Below the pieces are notes generated by a model, which saw only the letters and a list, made by a program, of their open reading frames with translations, had not been told where the DNA came from and made no database searches. From positions 80,665 through 144,664 of the IMG/VR virus record IMGVR_UViG_3300022689_000130: a stretch of DNA of 64,000 bases; one strand, 5' to 3'. Positions within the stretch are counted from its first letter, which is position 1, and the number at the start of each line of letters is the position of its first letter. This stretch comes from a virus. Shown in pieces: positions 30,704 to 64,000 of this stretch. Both the position numbers and the translations under genes were made by a program.

Positions 30704-30732
30704 TTGACTTTGGCAACTAAATCAATTATCAT
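30704..30732 (+). promoter_or_regulatory. Sigma70-like promoter at the head of the enzyme cluster
   Basis: TTGACT-17 nt-TATCAT, then AAGGAG RBS before ATG 30761. Confidence 0.65.
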
Positions 30733-30760
30733 CTAACTCACTATATCCTAAGGAGTCACT

Positions 30761-31108
30761 ATGGACGAAAGACTTGAACGCGCGCTAGCGTTTGGAAACT
30801 ATCGTATTACGATAGAAAACCGACGTAAAGCTATTGTACGCCGGTTTGAAAATATGTTGACTGTGTATCATCATAATGGCATGTTCGTTGCTAATCAAGA
30901 AACTATTGCATTTGTTGACACATTGATTAGACAAAATCATAAAGACGCTATTTTGCTTGATAGTAAAAACAACCCTATCGAAATCGATGATCTTGTTGCG
31001 TTTCGAGATGTGCTGTTTGATGCATATTTTGCAGCCACCAACGAATACTTGACTGAAGTCAGGAAATTGAAAAAAGCGCGCGATGTGAAAAAAGCAATGG
31101 ATTGGTGA
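30761..31108 (+). CDS. Hypothetical protein (possibly fibre-chaperone-like)
   Basis: Strong RBS, 115 aa; function guessed from position only. Confidence 0.6.
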   Translation: MDERLERALAFGNYRITIENRRKAIVRRFENMLTVYHHNGMFVANQETIAFVDTLIRQNHKDAILLDSKNNPIEIDDLVAFRDVLFDAYFAATNEYLTEVRKLKKARDVKKAMDW

Positions 31109-31986
31109 TCATGACCCGCGGTGTTGCATTCTTTGCTTACAATACAAGTCAAATAGATTACGTCAAGCTCGCCATTTTAGCGGCTAGATATTCTAAGAGA
31201 CACATGCCCAGTCTTCCAACTTGCTTGATCACCGATTCAGGATCATGGGACTGGTGTCAGCGCAGTTATAAAAAAGAAGTTGAGTTGGCATTTGATGAGA
31301 TTACTCTGGCTGAGCCAGCTCAACAGAACAACAAACGAGTGCATCATGACTCGCCCTACCATAAATTTGTTAGCGATTTCAAAAACGGAAACAAACATCG
31401 TGTATTCGAATACACCCCGTTTGATCAAACTTTATTGTTGGATATCGATTACATCATACAAAACAAGGATTTTGAATATGTGTTTGAAACCGATAATGCT
31501 GTTACATTGTTTCATAAGGCCGAATATCTTACTCGGAATTCTCCAGCACAGGCACAACGTTATTTAAACGATCAAGGTATCCCTATGCTCTGGAGCACAG
31601 TTGTCTATTTTGATCGTCGCAACCCAACAGCAAAAATGTTTTTTGATCTCTGGGCTCACATTGGTGAAAACTACGATTTTTATAAATTTATCTACGGACT
31701 TCCTGGTAAATTATATCGCACAGATTTTTGTGTAAGTATTGCAACACACATTATGAATGGTATGGGGCCAGGAAGTGTGATTGACGAATTCCCCGGGCGC
31801 ATGATTAACATGAGTCAGCATGATGATATCGTTAAAATCAACGACGTCGACGATTGGATTTATATGGTGAACAATCGAGAAGAGCAGTGGAAAGATACAC
31901 TCACCCGCATTGCGGGTGAAAACGTTCATGTCATGAATAAGCGGTCGCTTGATCGGCATTGGGATGATTTAATGGAGAAATTATGA
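31102..31986 (+). CDS. GT-A fold glycosyltransferase-like protein
   Basis: TPFDQTLLLDID (DxD) motif; start may be ATG 31111. Confidence 0.7.
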   Translation: MVIMTRGVAFFAYNTSQIDYVKLAILAARYSKRHMPSLPTCLITDSGSWDWCQRSYKKEVELAFDEITLAEPAQQNNKRVHHDSPYHKFVSDFKNGNKHRVFEYTPFDQTLLLDIDYIIQNKDFEYVFETDNAVTLFHKAEYLTRNSPAQAQRYLNDQGIPMLWSTVVYFDRRNPTAKMFFDLWAHIGENYDFYKFIYGLPGKLYRTDFCVSIATHIMNGMGPGSVIDEFPGRMINMSQHDDIVKINDVDDWIYMVNNREEQWKDTLTRIAGENVHVMNKRSLDRHWDDLMEKL

Positions 31987-32843
31987 CGCAAGGGTATGTT
32001 TTTTTCGGAGTCGACGATGATGGTAGCACACAAAATCTAGACTGTGCCCATGCGTTGAATTCTACTCTCAAGCTGGCTGATCCAGATCGAAAAACATGTG
32101 TAATCATCAATGCATTTGATCAAATGCCTGAACATATTGAAGATGATTTTGACTATATAGCTGAGCTGCCATTTGGCCGCAATGCAAGCGATTCTACTGA
32201 CCCAATGGTTGACTTTTGGCAAATGATCCATTGTACACCGTTCGATGAAAGTATGTTTCTTAATACTTTCAGCCTGGCTATAAACAATATGAACAGTCTA
32301 TGGGAGGTAGCCAGCCAGAGAGAAATGACATTTGCGAAAGCAAGAGATTTCCGTGGAGAATGCACTATCGACGTTAGACGTATTTCATCTCTCGAGGCGG
32401 TAAATATCAAACCATTTGATACAGACTGTATCTACGTTCCCAAGACAGAACGCACATATGAATTTTTCAAGATGGCGGATCCAGTTTTGAAGGGCTGGAG
32501 AGATGTTTATCGTGAAGTGCTGACCGAAACTAGACCAGCTAACTTCGTCCACTCAGTGATGTCTAATATTACTATGCATTTACTCGGTGAGCAACCTAAT
32601 CTTAGTGATACCTTTGACTATCAAGACATCAGCCTCGATTTTCTATATGATTCTGAGAATGACGAAAATCCAGACTGGCTAGACACACTTAATGTATGGC
32701 TGACAGATGACCTGCGTCTGAAAATTAATAATTACAATCAGAATGGATTGGTTGTTTACCGAGACAGAAAATTTCTAACAGATTCAATGAAAACAAAAAT
32801 TAATGAGCATTATAAAAAGAGCAAGATCAAAATCAAAGCCTAA
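31983..32843 (+). CDS. Glycosyltransferase-like paralog lacking DxD
   Basis: Similar layout to the previous gene (TPFDESMFLNTF), DxD replaced. Confidence 0.55.
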   Translation: MTQGYVFFGVDDDGSTQNLDCAHALNSTLKLADPDRKTCVIINAFDQMPEHIEDDFDYIAELPFGRNASDSTDPMVDFWQMIHCTPFDESMFLNTFSLAINNMNSLWEVASQREMTFAKARDFRGECTIDVRRISSLEAVNIKPFDTDCIYVPKTERTYEFFKMADPVLKGWRDVYREVLTETRPANFVHSVMSNITMHLLGEQPNLSDTFDYQDISLDFLYDSENDENPDWLDTLNVWLTDDLRLKINNYNQNGLVVYRDRKFLTDSMKTKINEHYKKSKIKIKA

Positions 32844-33765
32844 GTTCTACGTCTATTTTAACGACTGGACTGGTGAAATTATTTCTGTTGGGCGCAGCAA
32901 AAGAAACAGCCCGGCAACTTGTATTGTCACTGATGATGCTATTGCCGAACAAATCGTCGATGGTGATGCCAACGTAAGTGACTACCTTGTGAGCTCTGAT
33001 CGTAATCGTAATGAGCGCATTGTAGCTAAAAGCGATGTGTTGCAGCTACGCAAGCAAGAAGACAGTTTGTTCTTACTTCCTGAAGGTCGTATAAAAGACT
33101 GGGAGATCCGTGCTCGGCTATTTCGCCATAATATGATGTTTGTTGTAGAAACCAACAGGAAGATGTTGAGTAGGTTAATTGGACACAATAGGCGTCAAGA
33201 AATTCATCTAGAAAAATCAGCAACATTTGATTTCTATATCATACGCCGAGATCATCCAGATTATTTAATCAAAACGGTGAGCATCGATGCTGAAACACTT
33301 GTTAATCAGCCACGTGTAGCTGTTGATGTGCAAGATATCGTTAAATATGTGACATTAGATCAAATTAGTGTTATGACACGTCGATATTTTGAAAAATACT
33401 ATTTTGATTCGCTATACGATCGCTATGTTGATCCCGACAATGTCAAACATAGTCCCCAATTTCTTAAATGGCAGTGGGCTGATCAGTGGCCAGAATATCA
33501 TCTCGAAGCTGTTCAACATGGTAATTTAGTCACCTTTACCAGCGCAGTAAGTGCTGAACAGTTGACAGACATAGGGTTTACAAAACGCTACAAGTCATTT
33601 TATGTGGTCGGAGAAACACCAGACCAATTAATAGGAAAATTTATGCTAGATGTCGAACGTCTGCGAACAGGACAACCACAGAAGTTCAAAGTAGACTTCA
33701 ATATAATGCATGTGAATATAATGTTTGGCGGTAGCCAAATCAAATTGAATAAGAGAGCAGTATAA
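32803..33765 (+). CDS. Hypothetical protein
   Basis: 320-aa ORF coupled to both neighbours. Confidence 0.7.
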   Translation: MSIIKRARSKSKPKFYVYFNDWTGEIISVGRSKRNSPATCIVTDDAIAEQIVDGDANVSDYLVSSDRNRNERIVAKSDVLQLRKQEDSLFLLPEGRIKDWEIRARLFRHNMMFVVETNRKMLSRLIGHNRRQEIHLEKSATFDFYIIRRDHPDYLIKTVSIDAETLVNQPRVAVDVQDIVKYVTLDQISVMTRRYFEKYYFDSLYDRYVDPDNVKHSPQFLKWQWADQWPEYHLEAVQHGNLVTFTSAVSAEQLTDIGFTKRYKSFYVVGETPDQLIGKFMLDVERLRTGQPQKFKVDFNIMHVNIMFGGSQIKLNKRAV

Positions 33766-34754
33766 TGACTATCACACCAATCAATGATTTTGATATTGTT
33801 TTTATCAGTTATGATGAACCTAATGCTGACGAGCACTGGTATGACCTACAAGAAAAATGTCCATGGGCAACGCGCAGCCATGGTGTGCATGGTAGTGACG
33901 CGGCACACAAAGCCGCCGCCAAATTATGTGAAACCGAGCGCATTATCACTGTAGATGCAGACAACATTGTCGACCCAGAATTCTTTAATTTGGAGTTAGA
34001 CTTAGATAAAATCGGACGTAATGATGTTATTAGCTGGGCTGCAAAGAACGAGATCAACGGACTGGTATACGGCAACGGCGGTATCAAGTGTTGGCCAAGG
34101 CATGTGATTGAAAACATGCGCACACACGAAGCAGCGCCAGCCAACGACAAACGTGCGCAGGTTGACTTCTGTTGGAACATCAACTATGTGCAAATGAACA
34201 ACGTCTATAGCCACGTCTACAACAATGGATCACCATTACAAGCTTGGCGCGCTGGCTTCCGTGAAGGCGTTAAGATGACTCTTGAAGGCGGTGATACAGT
34301 AGAGCGCAGTCGTGTCAAGAAAGTTCACCGCAAGAACTATCAGCGTTTGTTGGTTTGGCAAACTGTTGGTGCAGACGCAACTAACGGTTTGTGGGCTATA
34401 TACGGTGCTCGCCTTGGCTGTGTGATGGCAAATTTGCGGCGCGACGAGTGGGATTGGCGCAATGTGCGTGACTTTGAATGGCTCAACGCATTTTGGCAAG
34501 ATAACATTCAGCCAGAGTTTGTCACTGACTCAGGCGAACATATATGTGAACGAACAGGCTACGCTTGGAATCGAGGGCGGTTGCTCGAAGTAATCGGTAG
34601 TTTAGGTGAAGAACTTCGCAGAGAATTGGATTTAGAGATTGCAGAAATGCCAGCTCAAACGAGTCGGTTTTTTAAAGAGGTTTACGTTAACCCGGCCCGT
34701 GTCCATCCAATGGCTCGCGAAGAGATCGTGATAAACGAAATTGAAAATGCATGA
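33765..34754 (+). CDS. GT-A fold glycosyltransferase-like protein
   Basis: DIVFISYDE, ITVDADN (DxD), NGLVYGNGG; paralog of 48054-48767. Confidence 0.7.
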   Translation: MTITPINDFDIVFISYDEPNADEHWYDLQEKCPWATRSHGVHGSDAAHKAAAKLCETERIITVDADNIVDPEFFNLELDLDKIGRNDVISWAAKNEINGLVYGNGGIKCWPRHVIENMRTHEAAPANDKRAQVDFCWNINYVQMNNVYSHVYNNGSPLQAWRAGFREGVKMTLEGGDTVERSRVKKVHRKNYQRLLVWQTVGADATNGLWAIYGARLGCVMANLRRDEWDWRNVRDFEWLNAFWQDNIQPEFVTDSGEHICERTGYAWNRGRLLEVIGSLGEELRRELDLEIAEMPAQTSRFFKEVYVNPARVHPMAREEIVINEIENA

Positions 34755-34784
34755 ACGTGAAACTATTCTGAAACGAGGTATTGT

Positions 34785-36353
34785 ATGTCAGCAAAACTAG
34801 ATGACAAAGATTGGCTAAAAGAGCCAAGCGGTTTTATCGCAAACAACGAACACAATATCCAGAACATGAAAGAGCTACTAGATAAAACTGGATGTGGCAT
34901 GTGTTTGGCAAAGTTTCGTCAGGTAACACTGCACCTGGGAACTGGCATGACACATAGTTGTCACCATCCAACACCACACAAGATCGATCCAAAGGAAGTG
35001 CAGAAGAATCCTAACTTGCTCTTCAACACACCTCGCCTCAAAGAGGCTCGCAGACAGATGCTCAACAACGAGCGTCCAGACGAATGCGACTATTGCTGGC
35101 GCATTGAAGACGACGGTAACACAAGCGACCGCGCCTTCAAAAGCTTGGAGCACTGGGCTCTACCAGACCACGACGAGATCACCGCGCTGGACGGCAGTGA
35201 AGACATCTTCCCCAGCTACCTTGAGGTCAGCTTTTCAAACGTATGTAACATGAAGTGTACATATTGTGGCCCAGAGTTTTCAAGCAAATGGGTAGAAGAA
35301 CTCAAGCAGTATGGCCCGCTTGAGGTGATGTCTGACACACCACACAAGCAATGGATCCAGGGTTATCAGGACTTGGATACATTAAACTACAAGCACAGAG
35401 AGTTCAATCCCTACATTGATGCGTTCTGGAAGTGGTTCCCCCGTGCCCTGCCCCACCTCAAGCACTATCGGATTACAGGCGGTGAACCGCTCATGAGCAA
35501 GGAAACGTTCAAGAGCATGGACTGGTTGATTGAAAATCCCAACGAAGATCTAGAGTTCAGCATCAACTCCAACTTTAGTGTGCCTGACAAGCTATGGGAT
35601 CAGTTCATCGAACGCCTTGAAGTGTTACGCTTTGACCGTGTCAAAAAAGTTACTATCTACACTAGCATTGAGGGCTGGGGCAAACGCGCGGAGTACGCCC
35701 GCACAGGACTGGATTTTGAACTGCTTCGTAAGCGTTACGAGCAGATCCTTGCAATGGGCAATGTGCGGTGTGTAATCATGGCCGCTTACAACATCTTCTC
35801 AATCACTAGTATGAAGGATATGCTCGAATGGGTGTATGAGATGAAGACCAAATACAATCCCAACAACTCAAGTGTTCACCTGGAAGAGAACACAGGATTT
35901 GAATTGGTGACAGGCAGCTATGGCGCCCGCCGTGATGCTAACCCTGAGCATCACGTTACAGCAGGCATTGACATTCCTTATTTGCGTAGTCCAGAACATC
36001 TGGACGCACAGTATTGTGACGCCGACATGGTTGAGCGTTATATGATACCTACAATGGACTTTATGGCCAGCCATGCAGCCAGCAGCGTGTGGGGAGACCA
36101 CCAAGGCTTTGAAAACTACGAGATTGAAAAGCTCAAGCGTATCATTGTCCACCGTATGTATTTCAATCGCAAGACACGAGACGACCAGGACAGCAGACAT
36201 GATATCATGAAAAACCGTGCCAAGTTTTACGACTTTGTAAATAGCATGGATAAACGACGAGGCACAAACTTCCTTGAGACTTTCCCTGAAATGACAGACT
36301 TTTACGAGCTATGCTGTGAGAGCAAACAAGCCTTGGTCAAAATCAACAGCTAA
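34785..36353 (+). CDS. Radical SAM protein 1 (N-terminal twitch/SPASM-like Cys domain)
   Basis: CNMKCTYC, TGGEP; N-terminal C..CHH..CDYC. Confidence 0.92.
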   Translation: MSAKLDDKDWLKEPSGFIANNEHNIQNMKELLDKTGCGMCLAKFRQVTLHLGTGMTHSCHHPTPHKIDPKEVQKNPNLLFNTPRLKEARRQMLNNERPDECDYCWRIEDDGNTSDRAFKSLEHWALPDHDEITALDGSEDIFPSYLEVSFSNVCNMKCTYCGPEFSSKWVEELKQYGPLEVMSDTPHKQWIQGYQDLDTLNYKHREFNPYIDAFWKWFPRALPHLKHYRITGGEPLMSKETFKSMDWLIENPNEDLEFSINSNFSVPDKLWDQFIERLEVLRFDRVKKVTIYTSIEGWGKRAEYARTGLDFELLRKRYEQILAMGNVRCVIMAAYNIFSITSMKDMLEWVYEMKTKYNPNNSSVHLEENTGFELVTGSYGARRDANPEHHVTAGIDIPYLRSPEHLDAQYCDADMVERYMIPTMDFMASHAASSVWGDHQGFENYEIEKLKRIIVHRMYFNRKTRDDQDSRHDIMKNRAKFYDFVNSMDKRRGTNFLETFPEMTDFYELCCESKQALVKINS

Positions 36354-37486
36354 TGCTACCATATGAACACATAAGACGCTTACACATTGAGGTAAGCAGC
36401 ATTTGCAATGCCGCTTGCCCTAACTGTCCACGAAATGTCCATGGCGGATATGTCCTGCCTGATCTCATAGAGCGGTCAGTGACGTTTGATGAGTTTAAAC
36501 AGATGTTTGCTGTTGATACAATTGTTCAACTTGAGCAGATTCGTTTTTGTGGCAACTATGGTGATCCGGTAAGTGCAAGAGACCTTCCACAAATTATAGA
36601 GTGGATTTACAGCTATAATCCAGACATACATATTGAGATTAACACAAATGGCGGTGCCCGTAGCACTTCATGGTGGGAAAGATTAGGTCGCCTCATGAAG
36701 GGTCACACTGGATTTGTTGTGTTCAGTGTTGACGGTTTAGAAGATACCAATCACATCTATCGTCGTGGTGTTGTGTGGAAGAAGCTCTATGCGAACATGG
36801 AAGCTTATGTGAAGGGTGGCGGTCGAGCAGTGTGGGAGTTTTTGGTGTTCCAGCACAATGAGCACCAAATTAATGAGGCACGAGAACTGAGTCGCCAGTT
36901 AGACTTTGACAAATTTCGCGTCAAGAAGCCTTTTGGTTTTAACGATAGCTATAAGAGCACACCATACATGCTGGTTTTGGATCGTGAAGGCAATTTTGAG
37001 AGAACATTGTGGCCGCGTGGTGTTGAGCCTGTTGAATTAGAATCACGTGACATGGACTTAGAGGCGTATCTCCGCGATCTCGCACTCGCACACAAGGCAG
37101 CATTTGAAGACCCTGAAGAACGTGAGATGTATTTTGAATACATGGACACTGCCCGCCCAACTGGAATTGACTGCATGAGTATCAGGGACAAAGAGATTTA
37201 TGTAGACAGTCAGGGTTACATGTATCCGTGTTGTTTCTTAGGTCACGGCGGTCAAATGCAGCGCGGCCGGGAAACATTATTTTTCCGCCGCTGGGTAACA
37301 AAGAATGTGGGATGGGATAACATCAGCCTGTTCAAACGCAGCGTGAAAGAAATTGCTGAAAGCGAATACTTTAGCTTGATTGAGCAAACGTGGGACAAGA
37401 CCCATCGCGAAGGCAAGATGGCAATGTGTTCGCTCATGTGCTCAAGCGACTGCGCCCGTAACACCATGAGGAATCTATATGACTAA
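36353..37486 (+). CDS. Radical SAM protein 2 (C-terminal twitch/SPASM-like domain)
   Basis: CNAACPNC, GNYGDP; C-terminal C..YPCC..C...C. Confidence 0.92.
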   Translation: MLPYEHIRRLHIEVSSICNAACPNCPRNVHGGYVLPDLIERSVTFDEFKQMFAVDTIVQLEQIRFCGNYGDPVSARDLPQIIEWIYSYNPDIHIEINTNGGARSTSWWERLGRLMKGHTGFVVFSVDGLEDTNHIYRRGVVWKKLYANMEAYVKGGGRAVWEFLVFQHNEHQINEARELSRQLDFDKFRVKKPFGFNDSYKSTPYMLVLDREGNFERTLWPRGVEPVELESRDMDLEAYLRDLALAHKAAFEDPEEREMYFEYMDTARPTGIDCMSIRDKEIYVDSQGYMYPCCFLGHGGQMQRGRETLFFRRWVTKNVGWDNISLFKRSVKEIAESEYFSLIEQTWDKTHREGKMAMCSLMCSSDCARNTMRNLYD

Positions 37487-38960
37487 ACGTAGTGCAACTA
37501 TAAATTGGATGGATACAGTTGTTAACAGTAAAAGTCGCACTTTCTGCGGCGCCAAGTGGTATAATGCAACTATCTGGCTAGGGAATGGTGCAACTGCTAG
37601 CTGTCACCATCCTCCACCTCACCAAATTGACGCAGAAGAAGTTCAGCGTAACCCTCGTGCACTGCACAACACTGAATACAAGAAGCTAGTGCGCAAACAC
37701 ATGCAAGAAGGGGTGCAAACTAAAGAATGTGACTATTGCTGGCGCATCGAGAACATGGACAGCAATGTGGTAAGTGATCGTTATTACAAGAGCAGCATCT
37801 ATTCTGAGGAAGAGCTGCAAGAGGCGTTTGACACGCCTTGGGATGCAGATATCAGCCTCAAACAGCTAGAAATTGCATTTGATAACAATTGTAACTTCGC
37901 TTGTTCTTATTGCAACGCAGGGTTCAGCACAACCTGGGCACATGATATCAACAAGAATGGTGCGTATCAGGACCTCACCAGCGATGGATGGGGTGCCTAT
38001 GCACACAATGGCAATTGGGCCCATCCATATGGAGTGACCAACAAGGACAACCCATATGTAGAGGCGTTTTGGAAGTGGTGGGAAAGCGAACTACAGCACA
38101 CATTGCGTGAGTTGCGTGTTACAGGTGGCGAAGCAACTGTAAGTCCGGACTTCTGGAAACTAGTTGCATGGTATGAGGCCAATCCTCAATGCCAGGTTGA
38201 GCTCAGTGTTAACACCAACCTGGGTATCAAGAAGAGACCTCTTGACAGGCTATGCAGACTTAGCCAAGAGATACCTACGTTTAACTTGTTTACAAGCAAC
38301 GAGAGCATGGGCAGCAATGCTGAATACATTCGTGACGGACTTGAGTGGGTAGCATGGCAAGAAAACCTGCGCTATGCAATGACACATGGACGCTTCCGCT
38401 ACATTCATGTCATGATGACAATCAACGCACTCTGCTTGGCTAGCTTTACTGACTTTCATGACTTCTTGCTAGACTTGCGTGAAGGTTCAGATACACGAAT
38501 TGAGTTCAGTCACAATATTCTTCGCTTTCCTAGCTTCCAAAGCATTACAACACTGCCCAGGCATCTAAGAGAGCAGCAGACAGAGGCGATCACAGCTTGG
38601 CTAGCGGATAACGAGCATCGTATGCAGCCACATGAGATCGATAGCTTCCACCGCACCATACGCTATGTGCAGGAGATTGATGAAGGACACAACATTGGCA
38701 ACTTGCACAGCAATTTAGAGAAGCGTCAACGAGACTTCCGTAACTTTTACGCACAGTATGACCGCCGTCGTGAAAAGAGCTTTGCACAAAGCTTTGCTAA
38801 CTGGCCCGAATTGGTTGAATGGTATGAAGGTGTAGACGGCCGCGCCAACGTAAATAAGATTGACGAACTGATTGTGGGTGATGCAACTGAATGGGGCCGC
38901 CCAATATTCGACGAAGTGCTCGCTGAAGCCCGAGACAAGAAAATAATTGATGATGAGTAA
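37479..38960 (+). CDS. Radical SAM protein 3 (N-terminal Cys domain)
   Basis: CNFACSYC, TGGEA; N-terminal C..CHH..CDYC; paralog of protein 1. Confidence 0.92.
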   Translation: MTKRSATINWMDTVVNSKSRTFCGAKWYNATIWLGNGATASCHHPPPHQIDAEEVQRNPRALHNTEYKKLVRKHMQEGVQTKECDYCWRIENMDSNVVSDRYYKSSIYSEEELQEAFDTPWDADISLKQLEIAFDNNCNFACSYCNAGFSTTWAHDINKNGAYQDLTSDGWGAYAHNGNWAHPYGVTNKDNPYVEAFWKWWESELQHTLRELRVTGGEATVSPDFWKLVAWYEANPQCQVELSVNTNLGIKKRPLDRLCRLSQEIPTFNLFTSNESMGSNAEYIRDGLEWVAWQENLRYAMTHGRFRYIHVMMTINALCLASFTDFHDFLLDLREGSDTRIEFSHNILRFPSFQSITTLPRHLREQQTEAITAWLADNEHRMQPHEIDSFHRTIRYVQEIDEGHNIGNLHSNLEKRQRDFRNFYAQYDRRREKSFAQSFANWPELVEWYEGVDGRANVNKIDELIVGDATEWGRPIFDEVLAEARDKKIIDDE

Positions 38961-41963: not shown

Positions 41964-41994
41964 CAACCTTTTTGACGAATCGTCAAAAAGGTTG
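41964..41994. terminator. Perfect 14-bp hairpin between convergent genes (probable bidirectional terminator)
   Basis: CAACCTTTTTGACG-AAT-CGTCAAAAAGGTTG. Confidence 0.6.
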
Positions 41995-53177: not shown

Positions 53178-53725
53178 TACTTAACCTTGAGAAAATATCT
53201 CATCACAAAAAACCATTTGAGTTTATCACTTTATATGACGTTGTTACACCAGACATGTTTGAACGTTTGTGTAGCGAAGCACAGCGACATCCATATTTTC
53301 GAGTAGAACAAACCAGAACAAGCAACCCCAATCGTGTGTGGCTTAACCAAACACCAGGCTGGCTCAGCGCACTAGCATATGAGTTTGACCGTCGTGACGT
53401 CAAGAGTGCGCTAGGATTTAACTTGGGTGGTAGCTTTGTTGATCTCAGAACACGAGTTGAATTGTGTATGGACAGTGTAGGCAGTTGGCTTAACCCTCAC
53501 AAAGATGATGCTGCAAAAGAAATGACATTGCAGCTTTATCTGGATGGACAAGGACGCGGCACGTCAATGGGCAATATTGACACCCAAATTATGCCAAACA
53601 CAGCATGGGCGTTTAACAACACAAATCAACCCGTGCATAGTTTACATCCACTTAAATATAACCGTGCAAGTATTATCGTCAACTATGTTAATGATCAATG
53701 GAGAGACTCATCAGTTCTAGTGTAA
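53174..53725 (+). CDS. 2OG-Fe(II) oxygenase
   Basis: HxD (PHKD), distal H (VHS), RxS (RAS). Confidence 0.75.
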   Translation: MILNLEKISHHKKPFEFITLYDVVTPDMFERLCSEAQRHPYFRVEQTRTSNPNRVWLNQTPGWLSALAYEFDRRDVKSALGFNLGGSFVDLRTRVELCMDSVGSWLNPHKDDAAKEMTLQLYLDGQGRGTSMGNIDTQIMPNTAWAFNNTNQPVHSLHPLKYNRASIIVNYVNDQWRDSSVLV

Positions 53726-56790: not shown

Positions 56791-58211
56791 TGACTAAAAA
56801 AGCACCAAGCGAAACCTTTTGTATTCTTCCTTGGATTCATTTATCAACGAGGCCGTCTGGAGAAATGCGGGTGTGCTGCACTGCGAACGCTAGCAGCGTT
56901 GGACCCACAAACGATAAAGAGCACGGCGGGCAAGTTGGCGTCCTCAAAGATGAAATGGGGCGTCCAAACAATCTTAACGTGAGTGATTTCCAAACAGCGT
57001 GGAATTCAACTTACATGCGAAATGTTCGTAAGCAAATGCTCGCAGGTGAAAAACCGCCTAGCTGTCTCAAGTGCTATAAAGAAGAAGACGCCGGACATAA
57101 TTCAAAGCGTATGTGGGAAACACGATATTGGAGCGAACGCTTTGATATTGATCAACTGGTTGAAGAAACAAATGAGGATGGATCAATTCCGCCAAAACTT
57201 CGTTACATTGATTTGCGCTTTGGAACAAAGTGTCAACTGGCATGTGTGATGTGCTCACCGCACGATTCATCAGGATGGATCAAAGAGCACACTAAAATGT
57301 TTCCGCAAGTGCAAAATGAGTCTTTGAAGGAAACAATGCAATGGCGAGATAAGGGATCTATTAACGGTAGTTCATATAACTGGCACAAAAACAATCCAGT
57401 GTTTTGGAAGCAGTTTAACGAACAAATTCCAAACATGGCACAGCTTTATTTCGCAGGCGGCGAATCATTGATCATTGAGGAACACTATGAAATACTTGAA
57501 GAAGCAATTCGTTCAGGTCATGCAAAAGACTTGGAACTTCGTTACAACTCAAATGGAGTTGAATGGCGAGAGGATTTATTTGATCTATGGCGAGAATTTA
57601 GGTTGGTGCGTTTCCATTACTCTGTAGACGATATTGGTGCACGAAATGAATACGTGCGTTACCCAAGCAAGTGGGAACGTACCGAAGAAGTATTTCACAT
57701 CTTAGACAACGAAACAAGTGACAACGTAGAAATAACAATTGCTTGCGCAGTGCAAGCACTCAACATCTATTATATTCCTGACTTCATTAAGTGGAAGCTA
57801 ACACAAGGCTTTCGTAAAATCAACATGTGGCCGTTTGGCGCGGGCGGCATCAACTATCACTTTGTATATCACCCACCACACCTCAACGTTAAAAGCTTGC
57901 CTGCATGGTTCAAAGACGAAGTAGATCGCAAATATGAGGACTTTATTCCGTGGTGGGAAGAGAACTGGGAGCTCGGTATTCCTGAATGGCATCGTGGTAA
58001 AGTAACACAAGAACAGTGGCGTGAAGCGGGCTATGGGATCAAGCGTCTACGGGGTATGGTAAATTTCATGAAGAGTGAAGATTGGTCAGTGCGTATGCCA
58101 GAGTTTCAAGAATACATCAGGCTGATTGATCGAACACGCGGCTTGGATTTTGCCACTGTGTATCCAGAGATGAAAGATATTTTGAATGAACAGAACTTAA
58201 AGAATGTTTGA
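56790..58211 (+). CDS. Radical SAM protein 10 (N-terminal Cys domain)
   Basis: CILPW..RVCC..CLKC, CQLACVMC, AGGES. Confidence 0.92.
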   Translation: MTKKAPSETFCILPWIHLSTRPSGEMRVCCTANASSVGPTNDKEHGGQVGVLKDEMGRPNNLNVSDFQTAWNSTYMRNVRKQMLAGEKPPSCLKCYKEEDAGHNSKRMWETRYWSERFDIDQLVEETNEDGSIPPKLRYIDLRFGTKCQLACVMCSPHDSSGWIKEHTKMFPQVQNESLKETMQWRDKGSINGSSYNWHKNNPVFWKQFNEQIPNMAQLYFAGGESLIIEEHYEILEEAIRSGHAKDLELRYNSNGVEWREDLFDLWREFRLVRFHYSVDDIGARNEYVRYPSKWERTEEVFHILDNETSDNVEITIACAVQALNIYYIPDFIKWKLTQGFRKINMWPFGAGGINYHFVYHPPHLNVKSLPAWFKDEVDRKYEDFIPWWEENWELGIPEWHRGKVTQEQWREAGYGIKRLRGMVNFMKSEDWSVRMPEFQEYIRLIDRTRGLDFATVYPEMKDILNEQNLKNV

Positions 58212-59523
58212 ACAATTACACTGTCCAATGAGCTATGCAGTTTATAAATTCCAGCCGGAGATCGGCGACTTTTCTGCATGTTGTGATGCAACAAGCTATA
58301 AATTTGATGCCAAGTTGTTTGATGAATTAGGCGGCGATTATTTTGAGAAACACCCAAAACTAGTTGAACGAAAGCAAGCATTGTATGATAATATCAAACA
58401 TAGCGACTGCTCACAATGCTGGATAAAGGAAGAGCAAGGGCTCAATTCAATGAGAATGGAATTAGGACCCCACCAGCCTGAATTATTCAATAACAGAACA
58501 CTTGACATTAACTCTGCATACCCTAGTAGATTTGAATTGTGGATGAACTCTACTTGTAACTTAGGTTGCTTTATGTGCCACATAGGAAATTCAAATACGC
58601 TTCGAAAGATTTGGTATACAGACTTTGATTCATACGGTAACGACGGCAAAGGTTACGATGTGTATATCAATGAAAAGCAATATACAAGAGAGAATTATCA
58701 GCCTAAATATACAGAAGCAATGTTGAATTTTATTGTTAAACATATAAAGAATTTAGAGTCATATGCATTAAACATTGCGTATTTAGGAGGAGAACCAACG
58801 CTGCATCATGAAATGTATGAACATGCTGACCTATTCATTGAGGCAGGCCGAGAAGCAATTAAAGCAGGTAAAGAATTAAAAATTGAAATCACAACAAATG
58901 GCACCAGTAAAGATAAACTGAATGAGCGATTCTATCGCATGTATGAAAGGTATAAGCAAGCTGGGTGGTCCACACGTATTATGGTTAGCCAAGACGGTGC
59001 TAATGAATATGCACAAGTCAGACACGGAGCAGACTTTCAGCAAATTGCACAAAACTATGGTAATTGGTTAAAACCAGACTCGGTAGTCGATGAAGTTACT
59101 AGCTTTACAGTTGTGAGTGCAATCAATCTACCATATATTGATCAAATGGCAGACTATATCAATGACGCAGTTAGAAATAACTATAGAGGTAACAAAAAGA
59201 TAGCAATTCGTTTTAACACGCTTATTGACCCGAAATGGATGAGAGTTGAAAATTTACCCAGGCATTATGCCGAGTCTAGCATATCTCATGCAAGACGTGT
59301 ATTCACTGAATTACAAGAAGATTACCCTAATCTAAAATACAATTATTCATTGTTTGAAAATATCGCAGAAACTCTCAAAGAAACTATTCAACCAGACAAA
59401 GTAGAGAATTTTTTTGAACGCATAGATTACACTAACAGTATCTATCAAAAAACATACCCAGAATGGGACTTTTACAAGCAATTCCCATTTCTGACAGAAT
59501 ACAGAAAAGAATATGGTATTTAA
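58204..59523 (+). CDS. Radical SAM protein 11 (N-terminal Cys domain)
   Basis: C..ACC..CSQC, CNLGCFMC, LGGEPT. Confidence 0.9.
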   Translation: MFEQLHCPMSYAVYKFQPEIGDFSACCDATSYKFDAKLFDELGGDYFEKHPKLVERKQALYDNIKHSDCSQCWIKEEQGLNSMRMELGPHQPELFNNRTLDINSAYPSRFELWMNSTCNLGCFMCHIGNSNTLRKIWYTDFDSYGNDGKGYDVYINEKQYTRENYQPKYTEAMLNFIVKHIKNLESYALNIAYLGGEPTLHHEMYEHADLFIEAGREAIKAGKELKIEITTNGTSKDKLNERFYRMYERYKQAGWSTRIMVSQDGANEYAQVRHGADFQQIAQNYGNWLKPDSVVDEVTSFTVVSAINLPYIDQMADYINDAVRNNYRGNKKIAIRFNTLIDPKWMRVENLPRHYAESSISHARRVFTELQEDYPNLKYNYSLFENIAETLKETIQPDKVENFFERIDYTNSIYQKTYPEWDFYKQFPFLTEYRKEYGI

Positions 59524-59526: not shown

Positions 59527-60795
59527 ATGGGCCTTTGCGCAGTAGACGACAAAAACGAAAAACAATTGATGGTGATATGGGACCTTGGGCGCCGCTGCAC
59601 GTTCGCTTGCTCATACTGCCCACCACATAGAAAGAACAACTGGAGTGATACAGCTAGTTATGATGAACTGGTAAAGACTGCTGACGCACTAGAACGTTAC
59701 AGTGAAATTTACAACCGTCACCGTAACGAACCTTTCCGTGTTGCTGCTAGCTTTACCGGCGGCGAGCCTACAGTCAATCCGGCATTTTTTCGCTTCTTGG
59801 AATACTTACAAGAGAAATACCCACATTGGAAGCGAACTTTAACAACTAACGGTTTCTATTCAGATCGTAAGCTACAAACTGTGATGAAGAACACCAACTT
59901 TACCACAGTAAGTTATCATTGCGAAAGCACTGACACAAACAAAGCGCAAGTGCGCCGTAATCTTCAAACCATGCTTGATGCTGGATATGGATTCAAGATT
60001 AACATTATGTTCCACGAGCGTCCTGAATATTATCAAGAATGTATTGACCTTGCGCAATGGTGTGATGACAACGGTGTGATGTATACCCCGCGTGTTATTG
60101 GAGACCAGGGCGACATCAAGCAAGGTCTTAAAGACAAAACAGTGCACACCTATACTGAAGAGCAGGTAGCATGGATGAAGCGTTACTGGGATGCAAAGCG
60201 ATCAGGAGACACACGACCAGCTCACACCGCTAGTCAGAAGCCACGTGGAGCACAGGCCCCTGAGAGTGCAATGGCTATGGCAACCCAGCAGCCCAAGAAG
60301 GTGGTTGGTCAGAACATTGGCCGTCCGTGCTGCGGTGGCCGCCAGCTTGATCTCAAAGTTGACGATGAGTGGAGCGTGGGAAGCTTTGTGGAGAACAATA
60401 ACTTCCAGGGCTGGAGTTGTATGATCAACTGGTATTTTCTCTACATCCATCAAGAGATTGACAAGATTTGGCACCACCAGACTTGTCAGGTAAATATGGA
60501 CGGCAACGTAGGTCCTATCTGCAAAGTTAGCGAGTTTGACGAATATTGTGACCGGATAGATGCACAATTTGCCACTGGTGGCATACCTTTCATCCGTTGT
60601 CCCAAGACACATTGCGGTTGTGGTTTATGTGTGCCAAAAGCCAAGAACGACAACTTAGCGGAGTCTATCTTCCGCTATCATGCGCCAGGCGTCGAGCCAG
60701 AGTTTATGGAGCAACAGCAAAACGTAAACATGGGCGGCAGCCTCAAGGCCTTGGTATACAAATTTGATGAGGAAAACGGAAATGAAACTGTCTGA
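59527..60795 (+). CDS. Radical SAM protein 12 (C-terminal Cys domain)
   Basis: CTFACSYC, TGGEPT, FQGWSC..C...CGCGLC. Confidence 0.92.
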   Translation: MGLCAVDDKNEKQLMVIWDLGRRCTFACSYCPPHRKNNWSDTASYDELVKTADALERYSEIYNRHRNEPFRVAASFTGGEPTVNPAFFRFLEYLQEKYPHWKRTLTTNGFYSDRKLQTVMKNTNFTTVSYHCESTDTNKAQVRRNLQTMLDAGYGFKINIMFHERPEYYQECIDLAQWCDDNGVMYTPRVIGDQGDIKQGLKDKTVHTYTEEQVAWMKRYWDAKRSGDTRPAHTASQKPRGAQAPESAMAMATQQPKKVVGQNIGRPCCGGRQLDLKVDDEWSVGSFVENNNFQGWSCMINWYFLYIHQEIDKIWHHQTCQVNMDGNVGPICKVSEFDEYCDRIDAQFATGGIPFIRCPKTHCGCGLCVPKAKNDNLAESIFRYHAPGVEPEFMEQQQNVNMGGSLKALVYKFDEENGNETV

Positions 60796-61480
60796 TACTT
60801 ACGGACAAACAATTGATTTTGAAATCCCCGAGCAGCACACACGAATCGGTGTCAACTGTTCAGGTGGCGCAGATAGCGCCATTTTGCTTTATATAATAGC
60901 AGATTATCTCAAGCAGAACAATAGAACAGATGTCGAACTCAACGTGCTCAGTTGTGCAAACGATAAAAAGCATCGGTGGAACGTGCGCAAAGCAGCCGAT
61001 GTCATCAACTATACGATTGACAAACTAGATTGGAATCAATTTGGATGCCATTATGCATACTATCGTGATGTGCAAGCTGAAGAATATTTCCACGAGTTTG
61101 AAATGAAAATGTTTAAAGATGACAGAATATCATTCTTGATCAGCGGCGTGACTGCCACACCAAAAATTGATGCCGTTGTTGAAAACAGCAAGGGTGTAAT
61201 GGTTGATCTTCGTGAGCATGAAGATTGTCTTGGTAACCGCGATCCTAACAAACAGCGTCCTCTTTTGAATGTGTCTGGACATTTCTACACACCATTAACC
61301 AACGTTGATAAACGATTTGTTGCTGACATGTATGATCATTATGATGTGCGTGACATGTTCTATTTGACTCGTAGCTGTGAAGCTATTCCAGATGGCCGTT
61401 ATGATCCAGACTTTGAGCAACACCCTTGTGGTGAATGTTGGTGGTGTCTTGAACGCAAGTGGGCGTTTGGAGAGTTTTAA
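60782..61480 (+). CDS. PP-loop ATP pyrophosphatase, QueC-like
   Basis: SGGADS PP-loop, TRSCE, CGECWWC.ER; probable start ATG 60782. Confidence 0.75.
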   Translation: MKLSDTYGQTIDFEIPEQHTRIGVNCSGGADSAILLYIIADYLKQNNRTDVELNVLSCANDKKHRWNVRKAADVINYTIDKLDWNQFGCHYAYYRDVQAEEYFHEFEMKMFKDDRISFLISGVTATPKIDAVVENSKGVMVDLREHEDCLGNRDPNKQRPLLNVSGHFYTPLTNVDKRFVADMYDHYDVRDMFYLTRSCEAIPDGRYDPDFEQHPCGECWWCLERKWAFGEF

Positions 61481-62698
61481 GTGACTCGCTATGTGTGCAG
61501 TAAGATGTTTACAGATGTAAACATCAAGTTCCCCTATGAAACAGTCAAAAACTGTTGTAAGAGTAATGATTATCAGCTAACTCTTGAAGAAATGCAAGAG
61601 CTAGAACAACGTGGCGAAAACATCTTCACACACAATCGCGAATATGTACGACGCAAGCGCAGCATGTTATTTGACAATCGCTTGCCAGAAAACGGCTGCG
61701 ACACCTGCATACATGCCGAACCAAACAGTTTGTTTCGTAGTTGGAACAGGTGGGGCGACTGCAAAATTGATGCTGAAGAAATTTTAAAGAAAGACAACTT
61801 TAACGTCTATGAATTTGTATTGTCCAGCGCCTGTGATCTCAAATGTGTTTATTGTGCACCTAAGGATTCAACTAGCTGGGCTAAAGAACTCGGCGTACCT
61901 ATCAACCGCGGCCGTGACGAATGGAAAGAAACCGTAATACGTCATTTTATGCAACATTTACGTGAAAAAGAATACGATCCTAAACAAACGTATTGGTTCT
62001 TTTTCAGCGGTGGTGAACCCACATATAATCCTGAAACACTACCAATGATTGAAGAGATTATCAGTATCGTCCCACATGCTACGATCGTAATCAGTACAAA
62101 TGGTAATACCAAATCCAACGTATTGGAACGTTATTTGCAGGCCGTGCGCAGCAACCAAAAAACACAATGGGTCTTTGATTGTAGTGTTGACAGCATTGGA
62201 GACCGTGCTGAAGCCATTCGCTATGGCCTAGATTGGAAACGGTTCAATTACAATCTCAAAACCATTATGCGTGAATCCAATACTCGCGTTCGAATCAGCC
62301 CAACAGTAAATTTATATGCATTACCTACAATGTTGGAATTCGTTCAGCACTTTCATGATCTATTTCTAGAAATGAATCAATCAACTCAAGGGTTGTTCAA
62401 TTTTAACATGGTTCAAGAGTCACCTCTTAGCCCGTGGAGTGCCCCGCCACATTATGCTGAACTGTTAGAACCAGCAGTTGAGTATTGTGAGCAACATAAT
62501 ATTAAATTTGGCATACATTTGCGCAGTGTGCAACGATTGATTGGTAGCAAAATAAATGCTAAAACGTGGCAACAAGTAGAATCACAATGGCAATATTTTC
62601 AACGTATGCGTCCGGAAATAGACTGGGCCAGACTATTCCCGCACGTACCAGATATAATTGAGGAATTGAAAAATGAAGATCCTGATCTCAGGCAATAG
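61481..62698 (+). CDS. Radical SAM protein 13 (N-terminal Cys domain)
   Basis: C..NCC..CDTC, CDLKCVYC, SGGEPT. Confidence 0.9.
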   Translation: MTRYVCSKMFTDVNIKFPYETVKNCCKSNDYQLTLEEMQELEQRGENIFTHNREYVRRKRSMLFDNRLPENGCDTCIHAEPNSLFRSWNRWGDCKIDAEEILKKDNFNVYEFVLSSACDLKCVYCAPKDSTSWAKELGVPINRGRDEWKETVIRHFMQHLREKEYDPKQTYWFFFSGGEPTYNPETLPMIEEIISIVPHATIVISTNGNTKSNVLERYLQAVRSNQKTQWVFDCSVDSIGDRAEAIRYGLDWKRFNYNLKTIMRESNTRVRISPTVNLYALPTMLEFVQHFHDLFLEMNQSTQGLFNFNMVQESPLSPWSAPPHYAELLEPAVEYCEQHNIKFGIHLRSVQRLIGSKINAKTWQQVESQWQYFQRMRPEIDWARLFPHVPDIIEELKNEDPDLRQ

Positions 62699-63239
62699 TG
62701 AATACGGATTGAGCGCAGCCGTCGGCCGCAAGTTTCCAGGACAGGTTGAATTCGCCAGTCGTAGAACGGGATACGACCTAACGTCACATGATGGCAGACA
62801 AGCGTTCTCCGAGCTCTCTACGCAGGCTGATGTAGTCATTGTATGTGCAGCACTGTGGCAGTTTCAACAGACAGTGCTGCTAGACAGCGTGAGTAAGGCG
62901 TGCCGTGCAACAGGTGCGGCACCACACATTATTGTGGTAGGCAGCACAACAGACCGTGTCAAGGGCGGCAAAGCATGGCTTTACAACGCTGAGAAAAAAG
63001 CCCTACGTGACTACAGCAACACACTAGCTATAGGCGGGGTATGGGATAACAACTTGCCCAAAGTCAGTTATATAAGCTTTGGCACGTTGAGCAATAATCA
63101 AGAAAAGCATCCTGATCGACGATGTTTAGATATCGATGAGGCAGCAAAATATATTAAGTGGTTGATAGAGCAGCCAAAATGTGTTACGATAAATGAAATA
63201 AGCATCGATCCGATGCAAGGTGATATTTGGTATGAATGA
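62673..63239 (+). CDS. Short-chain dehydrogenase/reductase-like protein
   Basis: ILISG....GL Rossmann start, GS, YxxxK (YNAEK). Confidence 0.7.
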   Translation: MKILISGNSEYGLSAAVGRKFPGQVEFASRRTGYDLTSHDGRQAFSELSTQADVVIVCAALWQFQQTVLLDSVSKACRATGAAPHIIVVGSTTDRVKGGKAWLYNAEKKALRDYSNTLAIGGVWDNNLPKVSYISFGTLSNNQEKHPDRRCLDIDEAAKYIKWLIEQPKCVTINEISIDPMQGDIWYE

Positions 63240-64000
63240 TGATTTAAAATGGAGTGAATACGATTTCACAAAAATTCCATATGATGATTTAGTAAGTGTT
63301 GGGCAACGCACAATGCTCTATCGCGACATCTTTACCGTGAGCTGGTTACTAGGTCGCTTTTGTAATTATCGTTGCAGCTATTGCTGGCCCTATGCCCGCA
63401 GCAACACCAAGGACCATCGTCCAACCAAATTGTGTTTGAAAACTATTGACGAGATTAAGAGGCAAGCACGTGAAAACGGATTTAACTCATTCCATTTCAG
63501 TCTTTCTGGAGGAGAGCCGACATTCCATCCTGGCTACCTTGATATTCTCAGTCATCTTGCAGATGATGTCGCCAATACCAACTACACCAGCATACACAAA
63601 ACCAGCAACTGCTCTAGACCAATCCGCTGGTATGAGGACTTCGTTGAGCGCGCCAAGCCATTCCACCGCGCCAGCATTACTGCGAGCTTGCACACAGAGC
63701 ATGTTGACACACTAAAGAAGATGCAAGACTTTGCTGATAAGCTCGTCCTATGCCAAGAGCACGATGTTCAAGTGACTATCAACATGGTTATGGTTCCGGA
63801 ATGGTTTGAGCGCGACTGGGAGAACGCCTTGTTCTTCCACGAGCAAGGCATCAACGTAACACTCAAGCCGCAGAGCGATCCTACCGCTAGCCGTGTTGTT
63901 GATGGCTATACTGATGAGATGCTACAGCGTTTGTGGAATGGTATGCCGCAACGCGCTTATACAGAAATGAAACGCAAGTGGGAAGGCAGGCCTAAACCAG
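63232..64000 (+). CDS. Radical SAM protein 14 (partial, runs off the window)
   Basis: Open from ATG 63232 to the end; WLLGRFCNYRCSYC and SGGEPT; not in the ORF track. Confidence 0.9.
   Translation, partial: MNDDLKWSEYDFTKIPYDDLVSVGQRTMLYRDIFTVSWLLGRFCNYRCSYCWPYARSNTKDHRPTKLCLKTIDEIKRQARENGFNSFHFSLSGGEPTFHPGYLDILSHLADDVANTNYTSIHKTSNCSRPIRWYEDFVERAKPFHRASITASLHTEHVDTLKKMQDFADKLVLCQEHDVQVTINMVMVPEWFERDWENALFFHEQGINVTLKPQSDPTASRVVDGYTDEMLQRLWNGMPQRAYTEMKRKWEGRPKP

Follow-up and report, generated by a model that had tools for sequence, protein, structure and literature searches.

A hypervariable island of radical SAM and glycosyltransferase-like genes behind the tail-fibre genes of an uncultured marine jumbo phage

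Organization of the island

The gene island described here occupies the last 33 kb of a stretch of viral DNA of 64 kb (the window), which forms the final part (positions 80,665 to 144,664) of the linear IMG/VR virus record IMGVR_UViG_3300022689_000130 (144,664 bp, CheckV completeness 39%). The island runs from gene 30761 to the contig end, the last base of the window being also the last base of the contig, and comprises 35 open reading frames (ORFs) of at least 80 amino acids (aa) together with one of 34 aa; genes are named by their first coordinate in the window, and the features are collected in Table 1. The contig has no terminal repeat or circular closure, and its final ORF has no continuation at the contig start. 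The part of the window upstream of the island encodes SbcCD-like nucleases, proteins of the baseplate hub and wedge, a giant protein and fibre-like proteins. An earlier note on this DNA had described a co-oriented, translationally coupled array starting about 70 nt after the last tail gene, and the layout agrees, with 34 of the 35 ORFs on the plus strand, most junctions overlapping (by 1–68 nt) and a gap of 71 nt between the last fibre-region gene (29442-30689) and the island. The same note saw in the array a dedicated phage-encoded enzyme cluster centred on glycosyltransferase (GT)-fold genes and radical S-adenosylmethionine (rSAM) enzymes, a description that the analysis upholds.

Membrane segments are predicted in none of the 35 island proteins, so that no flippase, polymerase or priming transferase is found among them. 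A megablast search of 50,697 phage records with 19 kb of island sequence gives no match, and a PHROGs search with 10 non-rSAM island proteins returns a single weak match, to a family of unknown function.

Radical SAM enzymes

The motif CxxxCxxC is present in 14 ORFs within 29 kb and all 14 match Pfam Radical_SAM (PF04055), the count given in the earlier note; the genes are intact apart from 63220, which is cut by the contig end. Eleven of the 14 exceed the PF04055 gathering score as single hits and 37479 does so when neighbouring hits are summed, whereas 34785 and 56790 fall below it but are strong members of NCBIfam NF033640 (N_Twi_rSAM). At least five further cysteines occur in every rSAM ORF except the truncated 63220. 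From the motif and the family matches all 14 enzymes are predicted to cleave SAM reductively by means of a 4Fe-4S cluster.

All-against-all phmmer comparison divides the enzymes into three architectures. Group A consists of nine proteins with an N-terminal auxiliary cysteine domain and corresponds to NF033640, with six passing the curated cut-off of that family (170 bits, whole-protein score) at 288–425 bits, two falling just short of it (about 150 bits) and 40891 being a distant relative. Cys-11, Cys-29 and Cys-95 are invariant in alignment A1 and lie ahead of Cys-148, Cys-152 and Cys-155 of the CxxxCxxC motif, which is followed by GGE, the same order of an N-terminal Cys-rich twitch domain, CxxxCxxC and GGE that characterizes NF033640. 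In 38947, 40891, 41996 and 56790 the Pfam SPASM match likewise precedes Radical_SAM. The earlier note had referred to twitch/SPASM enzymes as the known background; most of the island rSAMs are not of the classical C-terminal type and belong to this permuted N-terminal-twitch family. Group B (36353 and 52077) has the rSAM core first with a SPASM-like C terminus, and group C is composed of 53698, 59527 and 63220. NF033640 is a sequence definition to which no substrate or reaction is assigned; the island holds eight to nine copies of it along with the two other rSAM architectures. The enzymes do not map to known unrelated pathways, since no island rSAM comes near the cut-off of any NCBIfam equivalog with a named function and the three core enzymes have no sequence relatives in the PDB (the searches are specified below).

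Glycosyltransferase-like and other scaffold proteins

Four GT-like genes are supported, the GT8-like pair 31102 and 31983 and the GT-A fold paralogues 33765 and 48054. The five counted in the earlier note are thus reduced to four; 32803 shows no profile similarity to the GT families, nor does 55858. The 31102-family profile matches glycogenin weakly (E 0.35). The 31983 protein is the most divergent member of its family (19–28% identity) and, judged by its altered DxD motif, may be an inactive or repurposed glycosyltransferase, whereas DxD is invariant within the 48054 and 33765 families.

The model of 48054 has WrtF, SunS, RmlT and TarP as top Foldseek matches, all of GT2 type, and VIA superposes it on B4GALNT1 with a Z score of 11.5 and a root mean square deviation of 2.6 Å over 131 residues, followed by ThuS, WrtF and SpsA; the structural matches include the nucleotidyltransferases IspD and MobA, which have the same fold. 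For the 48742 model Foldseek returns only SAM-dependent transferases, with MtNAS and PsoF first, and the Atlas lead is Methyltransf_31. Profiles of 48054 and 48742 searched against PDB sequences give nothing useful.

Conservation in viral contigs and in a cultured phage

The 56790 gene was found at 317 loci in viral contigs, and the best 80 of these 317 (75–84% identity) were used for the scaffold comparison. The genes 30761, 31102, 33765, 48054, 48742, 52077, 56790, 62673 and 63220 recur across the 80 loci as a scaffold and the intervening genes vary. Every one of about 90 loci has both 56790 and 52077, and for three window rSAMs no counterpart is found there; the 684 rSAM ORFs of these loci form 128 clusters at 40% identity. 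Public data, those of Tara included, contain 3860 protein clusters for the core gene 56790, so the system appears ecologically large. Five long relatives carry 8–19 rSAM genes each, and the 14 rSAMs that the earlier note set against the few of characterised phages are not exceptional for this lineage, in which relatives have 15–19.

Three of the long relatives (G001, G002 and G005) share an order of giant protein, fibres, 30761, GT8-like, GT-A, a variable rSAM segment and carbamoyltransferase, continuing with GT-A, the methyltransferase-fold gene and the core rSAMs. Their fibre-region genes are placed as in the window, although the fibre proteins are only 23–48% identical. The same placement is seen in the cultured Ralstonia phage RsoM2USA (MG752970.1), the sole carrier of a 48054-type GT among the 50,697 phage records. 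Its ORF355 to ORF347, all of ORF347-355 being annotated as hypothetical, form a mini-island that encodes in turn a fibre-like protein, a 30761-like protein, two GT8 proteins, a small ORF, a GT-A protein, an N_Twi_rSAM, a second GT-A protein and a methyltransferase-fold protein. ORF353 scores 275 bits to the 31102-family hidden Markov model, ORF350 scores 278 bits to the 33765 family, and the single rSAM, ORF349, scores 304 bits to 34785 and 316 bits to NF033640. The mini-island differs from the window in having one rSAM rather than 14 and in lacking the 52077/56790/63220 trio and the accessory cassettes. In RsoM2USA the proteins of ORF356, ORF359 and ORF361 were identified as virion proteins by mass spectrometry of the ten most abundant bands (PMC8504454), and these three genes lie just upstream of the mini-island. 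The tail-fibre linkage that was noted earlier for the window is thus also found in a cultured phage and in three long, divergent relatives.

The phage is uncultured and marine, belongs to a jumbo lineage and is of lytic, T4-like type. The nearest cultured relatives of its baseplate wedge protein are the jumbo myoviruses PA5oct, SCTP-2 and Rak2-like phages (about 40% identity), Synechococcus phages rank lower, and no Pelagibacter phage is among the 25 matches listed. The largest related contig is 354 kb.

Genes beyond the far end of the island can be seen in several relatives. A gene of the thymidylate-synthase family (about 342 bits; a true ThyA or perhaps a hydroxymethylase) lies directly beyond the 63220-type rSAM in two of them (G001:C1:207055-207906 and G003:C1:155491-156336), where it forms the far island border. 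In the 354-kb relative L081 (17008-21407) and in L174, a 350-kb contig from a metagenome-assembled genome (MAG; 18324-21207), the 63220-type rSAM is followed by further genes, for an Asp/Arg beta-hydroxylase, a TauD-type dioxygenase and fatty-acid-desaturase-like proteins together with further rSAMs, and therefore the island continues with oxygen-dependent tailoring enzymes in some genomes. A SAM synthetase gene (MetK C-terminal domain, about 193–197 bits) is found in three of the five long relatives some 10–15 kb beyond the island, which fits heavy use of SAM. No flavodoxin is found in five records.

Bacterial relatives

A scan of bacterial genomes for the N_Twi family with a 4-sequence alignment yielded 77 best genome loci, of which 65 are from Bdellovibrionota, including contigs of 0.9–3 Mb and often with several copies. 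The core in these bacteria is composed of 48742, 48054, 56790 (orthologues at 650–690 bits), 52077 and 63220, often with homologues of 62673, 60764 and 59527, and in one Bacteriovoracaceae MAG two Pfam Glycos_transf_2 genes flank the core trio. The cultured Poseidonocella sedimentorum KMM 9023 has two bona fide N_Twi_rSAMs (377 and 349 bits), neighboured by FdtA, an NDP-hexose 2,3-dehydratase, an EryCIII-like GT, two B12-rSAMs and polyketide synthase (PKS) genes; this gene context is the clearest hint that the N_Twi family may act on nucleoside diphosphate (NDP)-sugars.

Four loci binned in MAGs of Crocinitomicaceae, Gammaproteobacteria MED685, Neisseriaceae and Arcticimaribacter (L083, L084, L114 and L118) have a core of phage grade in the phage gene order, with the 56790 homologue at 650–865 bits, and probably represent phage contigs that were wrongly binned as bacterial.

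The carbamoyltransferase cassette

The GC content rises to 0.50 at 46–48 kb from about 0.40 on either side. This part of the island contains the carbamoyltransferase gene 46428, whose product is 66% identical over its full length to that of the L081 relative. It is preceded, between 45326 and 46428, by the remnant of another carbamoyltransferase, a methyltransferase-like ORF and a gap of 264 nt with minus-strand fragments, and the remnant, the minus-strand fragments and the jump in GC content are read from the sequence as scars of cassette exchange. A carbamoyltransferase gene split by an insertion was considered and rejected, as 46428 is full length and 45326 is what remains of a second copy.

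The gene for a 34-aa peptide that follows 46428 accompanies the carbamoyltransferase gene at 8 of 8 distinct viral loci sampled for that enzyme. Loci that lack the carbamoyltransferase lack the peptide gene too, most loci passing straight from the 33765 to the 48054 homologue, and the peptide gene is therefore an accessory module. The peptide had also been considered as a universal scaffold of the island and was rejected in that role, being tied to the carbamoyltransferase only. A DPHIYD version is present in a Bdellovibrionia contig upstream of an N_Twi_rSAM (L096 5816-5986, minus strand). Co-folding of the peptide with the carbamoyltransferase gives a score of 0.54 compared with 0.02 for the best control, the runs agreeing in at least 67% of contacts with a partner pLDDT (predicted local distance difference test) of at least 56. 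The support is weak; by the calibration of the method, passes at the 0.54 level are wrong in more cases than they are right, except for guesses that were likely beforehand, and here the strict gene coupling makes the guess a reasonably likely one.

Promoter-like elements

Four plus-strand sigma-70-like matches of at least 10/12 occur in 30–50 kb and three of them fall in the few intergenic gaps. The three best non-coding plus-strand boxes (10–11/12) are located in the three main gaps, heading 30761, 46428 and 48054, and a similar box at 5352 heads the minus-strand operon on the nuclease side. The T4-type late promoter TATAAATA occurs once in the window (26418, before the fibre gene 26443) and 4 times in the whole 144-kb record, where it is too rare for its lack in the island to be informative.

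Table 1. Features of the window, and SAM synthetase genes of relatives (position 1 is the first base of the window; SDR, short-chain dehydrogenase/reductase)
Feature	Position	Strand	Remarks
Giant protein, 3582 aa	14964-25712		Upstream of fibre genes; CBM_5_12 and CBM_X2 matches weak, both below cut-off
Five fibre-region genes 25751, 26443, 27792, 28371, 29442	25751..30689	+	Downstream of giant protein
Sigma-70-like box TTGACT-17-TATCAT	30704..30732	+	In 71-nt gap heading island
Small conserved protein, 115 aa, no Cys	30761..31108	+	Always first in block; homologues: 15 viral ORFs, RsoM2USA ORF354
GT8-like, DxD intact (LDIDY)	31102..31986	+	hhalign 99.7% to 31983 family
GT8-like paralogue, DxD lost (LNTFSL)	31983..32843	+	Family profile matches PDB glycogenin-1, E 2e-7, about 105 residues
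Protein of 320 aa without family match	32803..33765	+	No Pfam, PHROG or NCBIfam match; three weak homologues
GT-A fold GT-like, DxD intact (VDADN)	33765..34754	+	Paralogue of 48054 (phmmer 1e-22); alignment A4
N_Twi_rSAM, scaffold member	34785..36353	+	NF033640 322.9 bits; orthologous to single rSAM of RsoM2USA mini-island
rSAM, C-terminal SPASM-like domain, group B	36353..37486	+	Pfam Radical_SAM and SPASM; phmmer 208 bits to paralogue 52077
N_Twi_rSAM	37479..38960	+	NF033640 287.9 bits
N_Twi_rSAM	38947..40104	+	NF033640 293 bits; Pfam SPASM 8-70, Radical_SAM 104-251
Protein of 283 aa, 9 Cys	40073..40924	+	No family match; no homologue in sampled loci
rSAM, N-terminal SPASM, distant N_Twi relative	40891..41946	+	SPASM 26-86, then Radical_SAM; NF033640 56.6 bits
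Hairpin, perfect 14-bp stem	41964..41994		Between convergent 40891 (+) and 41996 (-)
N_Twi_rSAM	41996..43264	-	Sole minus-strand gene; NF033640 358.3 bits
Three small genes 43316, 44080, 44595	43316..45329	+	First two without assigned function; 44595 weakly sulfotransferase-like
N-terminal remnant of second carbamoyltransferase, 83 aa	45326..45577	+	72% identity to residues 8-75 of full-length relative
Class I methyltransferase-like ORF	45544..46164	+	Pfam Methyltransf_12/25/31 weak, all below cut-off
Minus-strand scars (putative)	46151..46355	-	Degenerate DPFIYD peptide copy 46151-46237; N_Twi N-terminus fragment 46248-46355
Sigma-70-like box	46355-46383	+	Precedes carbamoyltransferase 46428
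Full-length NodU/CmcH/TobZ-type carbamoyltransferase	46428..47912	+	Pfam Carbam_trans_N and Carbam_trans_C (1.8e-47)
Basic 34-aa peptide ending DPFIYD	47909..48013	+	Start overlaps carbamoyltransferase stop; translationally coupled
Sigma-70-like box	48010-48037	+	Precedes GT-A gene 48054
Core GT-A fold GT-like (IDADA)	48054..48767	+	Model pLDDT 86; in 74/80 viral loci
Core protein, N-terminal helical repeats and class I SAM-methyltransferase fold	48742..49713	+	Model pLDDT 85
Three accessory genes 49710 (sulfotransferase-like), 50562, 51305	49710..52102	+	50562 and 51305 without assigned function
Core rSAM, group B	52077..53177	+	Pfam Radical_SAM; in 77/80 viral loci, mean 67% identity; in Bdellovibrionota core
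Accessory protein of 183 aa without assigned function	53174..53725	+	
rSAM, group C	53698..54687	+	Pfam 47.6 bits; best NCBIfam match viperin-like, 50 bits vs cut-off 180
N_Twi_rSAM	54620..55867	+	NF033640 382.9 bits
Protein of 310 aa without family match	55858..56790	+	Nine homologues; upstream of core rSAM in closest relatives
Core N_Twi_rSAM	56790..58211	+	Most widespread gene of island; NF033640 424.9 bits
N_Twi-like rSAM	58204..59523	+	NF033640 152.6 bits, just below cut-off
rSAM, group C, 17 Cys	59527..60795	+	Pfam 44.5 bits; 40%-identity cluster in 48 loci
PP-loop ATP-pyrophosphatase-like (QueC/TtcA/TilS-like)	60764..61480	+	Pfam QueC 24.7 bits vs cut-off 22
N_Twi-like rSAM	61481..62698	+	NF033640 150.4 bits, just below cut-off
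Short SDR-like oxidoreductase (GNxxxGLA; YNAEK), core gene	62673..63239	+	Profile matches PDB SDRs, E 0.0025-0.01; alignment A5
Core rSAM, group C, cut by contig end	63220..63999	+	Pfam 58.1 bits; 83-91% identity in relatives, most conserved gene of island
SAM synthetase genes of relatives	G001:C1:221391-221795, G003:C1:147342-147746, G005:C1:104647-105051		Contig of window ends before that region

Proposed function of the island

The island is proposed to encode a hypervariable pathway in which an oligosaccharide is assembled in the cytoplasm independently of a lipid carrier and then edited by radical chemistry, a reading to which we assign a probability of roughly 0.5. Its conserved scaffold would be formed by the two GT8-like and two GT-A proteins, the class I SAM-transferase-fold protein, the SDR-like reductase and the rSAMs 34785, 52077, 56790 and 63220. 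Exchangeable cassettes would be carried between the scaffold genes, composed of rSAM paralogues, mostly of NF033640, and of classical sugar-tailoring enzymes such as the carbamoyltransferase, methyltransferases, sulfotransferase-like proteins and the PP-loop enzyme. The rSAMs would abstract hydrogen atoms either from NDP-sugars or from the glycan as it is built, with oxidation, epimerisation, deoxygenation, C-methylation or C-C coupling as possible outcomes; the GTs would next attach the sugars to a soluble acceptor, with no lipid carrier involved, and turnover of the cassettes would give each phage strain a different glycan.

We infer a sugar substrate, and favour a sugar-centred pathway, because four scaffold genes have a GT fold, the RsoM2USA mini-island has its one rSAM gene flanked by two GT genes, family members in bacteria have GT2 or NDP-deoxysugar genes as neighbours and the accessory enzymes are of the sugar-tailoring type. 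As no membrane or lipid-carrier function is present, the acceptor is more likely to be cytoplasmic. A virion protein, probably of the fibres, is our guess and the leading candidate for that acceptor because the island keeps its place behind the fibre genes and is extremely diverse. The diversity of the rSAMs (128 clusters) and the recombination scars fit a product under diversifying selection.

Several observations weigh against this proposal. None of the four GT-like proteins matches a Pfam GT model directly, their assignment resting on fold and profile, and in 31983 the sequence N-T-F replaces the DxD that 11 of 11 relatives keep. Genes for nucleotide-sugar synthesis (nucleotidyltransferase, 4,6-dehydratase or aminotransferase) are absent from the window by Pfam. 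Single-sequence searches with 52077, 56790 and a full-length 63220 homologue find no sequence relatives in the PDB, and matches to BlsE and MoaA are far below cut-off, so that there is no likeness to a characterized sugar-acting rSAM. Many bacterial N_Twi_rSAMs occur alone, in small arrays or among housekeeping genes, with no clear sugar link, and the conserved gene for the 34-aa peptide has to be counted here as well. The promoter-like boxes, from consensus matching only, suggest transcription of the island by host RNA polymerase, early or middle in infection; such expression, rather than late, would be a poorer fit to a virion acceptor.

BtrN, DesII, AprD4 and BlsE are sugar-acting twitch/SPASM rSAM enzymes that resemble the island proteins in combining an rSAM core with an auxiliary 4Fe-4S domain among GT and sugar-tailoring genes. 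Their auxiliary domain is C-terminal, whereas that of the island enzymes is mostly N-terminal, and BlsE matches reach 22–37 bits compared with a cut-off of 400. Virus-encoded glycosylation of virions without a host lipid-linked pathway is known for mycobacteriophage capsids and tails and for the capsid of chlorovirus PBCV-1, with soluble viral GTs and methyltransferases encoded near structural genes as in the window. No rSAM enzyme is known in mycobacteriophage or PBCV-1 glycosylation, and in the lineage of the window glycosylated virions are a prediction. The literature searched contains only a descriptive mention of phage rSAM cassettes, in the host recognition cluster (HRC) discussed below, and nothing relevant on the N_Twi family or on rSAMs of Bdellovibrio, marine jumbo phages or viral contigs.

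The enzymes could instead remodel glycans of the host envelope (lipopolysaccharide, capsule or glycoproteins) against superinfection or trapping of progeny, which appears unlikely. Seroconversion is known mainly from temperate phages, unlike the present lytic-type T4-like jumbo phage, and the 33 kb contain no membrane protein, lipid-carrier transferase, flippase or ligase, which would leave export wholly dependent on the host. The tight linkage to fibre genes across very divergent genomes is a further point against envelope remodelling. Early expression, as the sigma-70-like boxes suggest it, and the GT2 genes that adjoin the core in a bacterial chromosome are in its favour, and it has been proposed for the HRC of pelagimyophages and cyanomyophages. 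That cluster is described as a hypervariable island among the structural genes with fibres, GTs and rSAM cassettes; modification of the host O-chain is favoured for it and the rSAMs were not analysed (Zaragoza-Solas et al. 2020, PMC7029224). The window island is like HRC in being hypervariable, in adjoining a giant protein and tail fibres and in holding GTs and rSAM cassettes, and differs in that HRC is described in T4-like SAR11 phages whereas the window phage is of a jumbo lineage.

Enzymes of the rSAM/SPASM type classically mature peptides, and the mix of GT, methyltransferase, SDR and rSAM-SPASM genes recalls those of mycofactocin. A peptide-derived product, either like a ribosomally synthesized and post-translationally modified peptide (RiPP) or a glycosylated cofactor following mycofactocin logic, has therefore to be considered, in which the rSAMs would cross-link or otherwise alter a short precursor such as the DPFIYD peptide, with glycosylation, methylation and carbamoylation as later steps. 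The 34-aa ORF with its invariant C-terminal DPFIY motif, present in phage loci and in the Bdellovibrionia contig, would supply such a precursor, many weak NCBIfam matches of the island rSAMs are to peptide maturases, and Asp/Asn hydroxylase and TauD genes adjoin the island in relatives. What makes a peptide product improbable is that the precursor is accessory, accompanying only the carbamoyltransferase (8 of 8 loci) and being absent from most loci, with co-folding pointing weakly to the carbamoyltransferase as its partner. No PqqD or RiPP recognition element, leader peptidase or exporter is detected by Pfam in the 35 proteins (E ≤0.01), although divergent recognition elements can escape Pfam, and a non-exhaustive search finds no ORF with the peptide motif in the RsoM2USA mini-island.

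Synthesis of a free glycosylated small molecule in the infected cell, an aminoglycoside-like pseudo-oligosaccharide or another diffusible metabolite, is distinctly improbable. Twitch rSAMs, a TobZ-type carbamoyltransferase, an SDR and methyltransferases do make up an aminoglycoside- or deoxysugar-like mix, and the family members of Poseidonocella are part of a PKS/deoxysugar cluster, but the island has no 2-deoxy-scyllo-inosose synthase, PKS, nonribosomal peptide synthetase, aminotransferase, exporter or resistance gene, and a diffusible product offers no rationale for the conserved position behind the fibre genes.

Hypermodification of the phage DNA, with GTs and tailoring enzymes decorating a modified base, is very improbable in spite of the predicted early-type promoters, the QueC-like PP-loop gene, the soluble cytoplasmic nature of the enzymes and the thymidylate-synthase-family gene beyond the island end in two relatives, as that gene scores like canonical ThyA (342 bits), no TGT or DpdA is found in four records (G000-G003, all incomplete) and no FolE, QueD or QueE equivalog in the window (best QueE score 29 bits, cut-off 206), the island lies in the structural module away from nucleotide-metabolism genes, and the core occurs in Bdellovibrionota chromosomes and the family in a polyketide/deoxysugar cluster, where decoration of DNA is unlikely.

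Returning to the radical editing of a phage-built oligosaccharide, a more specific form of this proposal, possible but doubtful, is that the N_Twi rSAMs are a new class of carbohydrate-editing enzymes, that a combinatorial, swappable set of 14–19 of them produces a strain-specific, hypermodified glycan on the receptor-binding fibres and that the toolkit is shared with the predatory Bdellovibrionota, in which prey recognition also involves fibre-like proteins. If the proposed pathway is correct, abundant ocean phages spend about 10% of a genome of about 350 kb on undescribed radical carbohydrate chemistry. It would then provide the first function for the orphan rSAM family NF033640, new C-H-functionalising enzymes by the dozens or hundreds (a small sample has 128 subfamilies) and a new route by which phages diversify the surface chemistry of particles or hosts. 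Cultured entry points are offered by RsoM2USA with its one-rSAM mini-island and by Poseidonocella sedimentorum KMM 9023 with its deoxysugar/PKS cluster.

Additional features

The hairpin between the convergent genes 40891 and 41996 is likely, from its sequence and position, to be a bidirectional terminator bounding the only inverted gene of the island. Among the accessory genes, 44595 has a sub-threshold match to Pfam Sulfotransfer_3 (E 0.0045) and is a paralogue of 49710 (phmmer 1.7e-23); NCBIfam matches of 60764 to TtcA and TilS are weak. Among named Atlas clusters DUF4376 comes closest to 30761 (0.90), which is a lead only, and this gene may belong to the fibre module.

In the fibre region, 29442, the last gene, has no relatives in viral contigs by the pattern method, and 25751, 26443 and 28371 match PHROG families of minor tail or tail fibre proteins. 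The neighbours 25751 (25751-26380) and 26443 (26443-27753) share a homologous C-terminal part (phmmer 2e-40), and each matches the C-terminal end of a PHROG minor tail protein family. Homologues of the giant protein occupy the equivalent position in relatives. ORF361 of RsoM2USA (>288 kDa), compared by position only, lies in the same region upstream of its island as the giant protein of the window.

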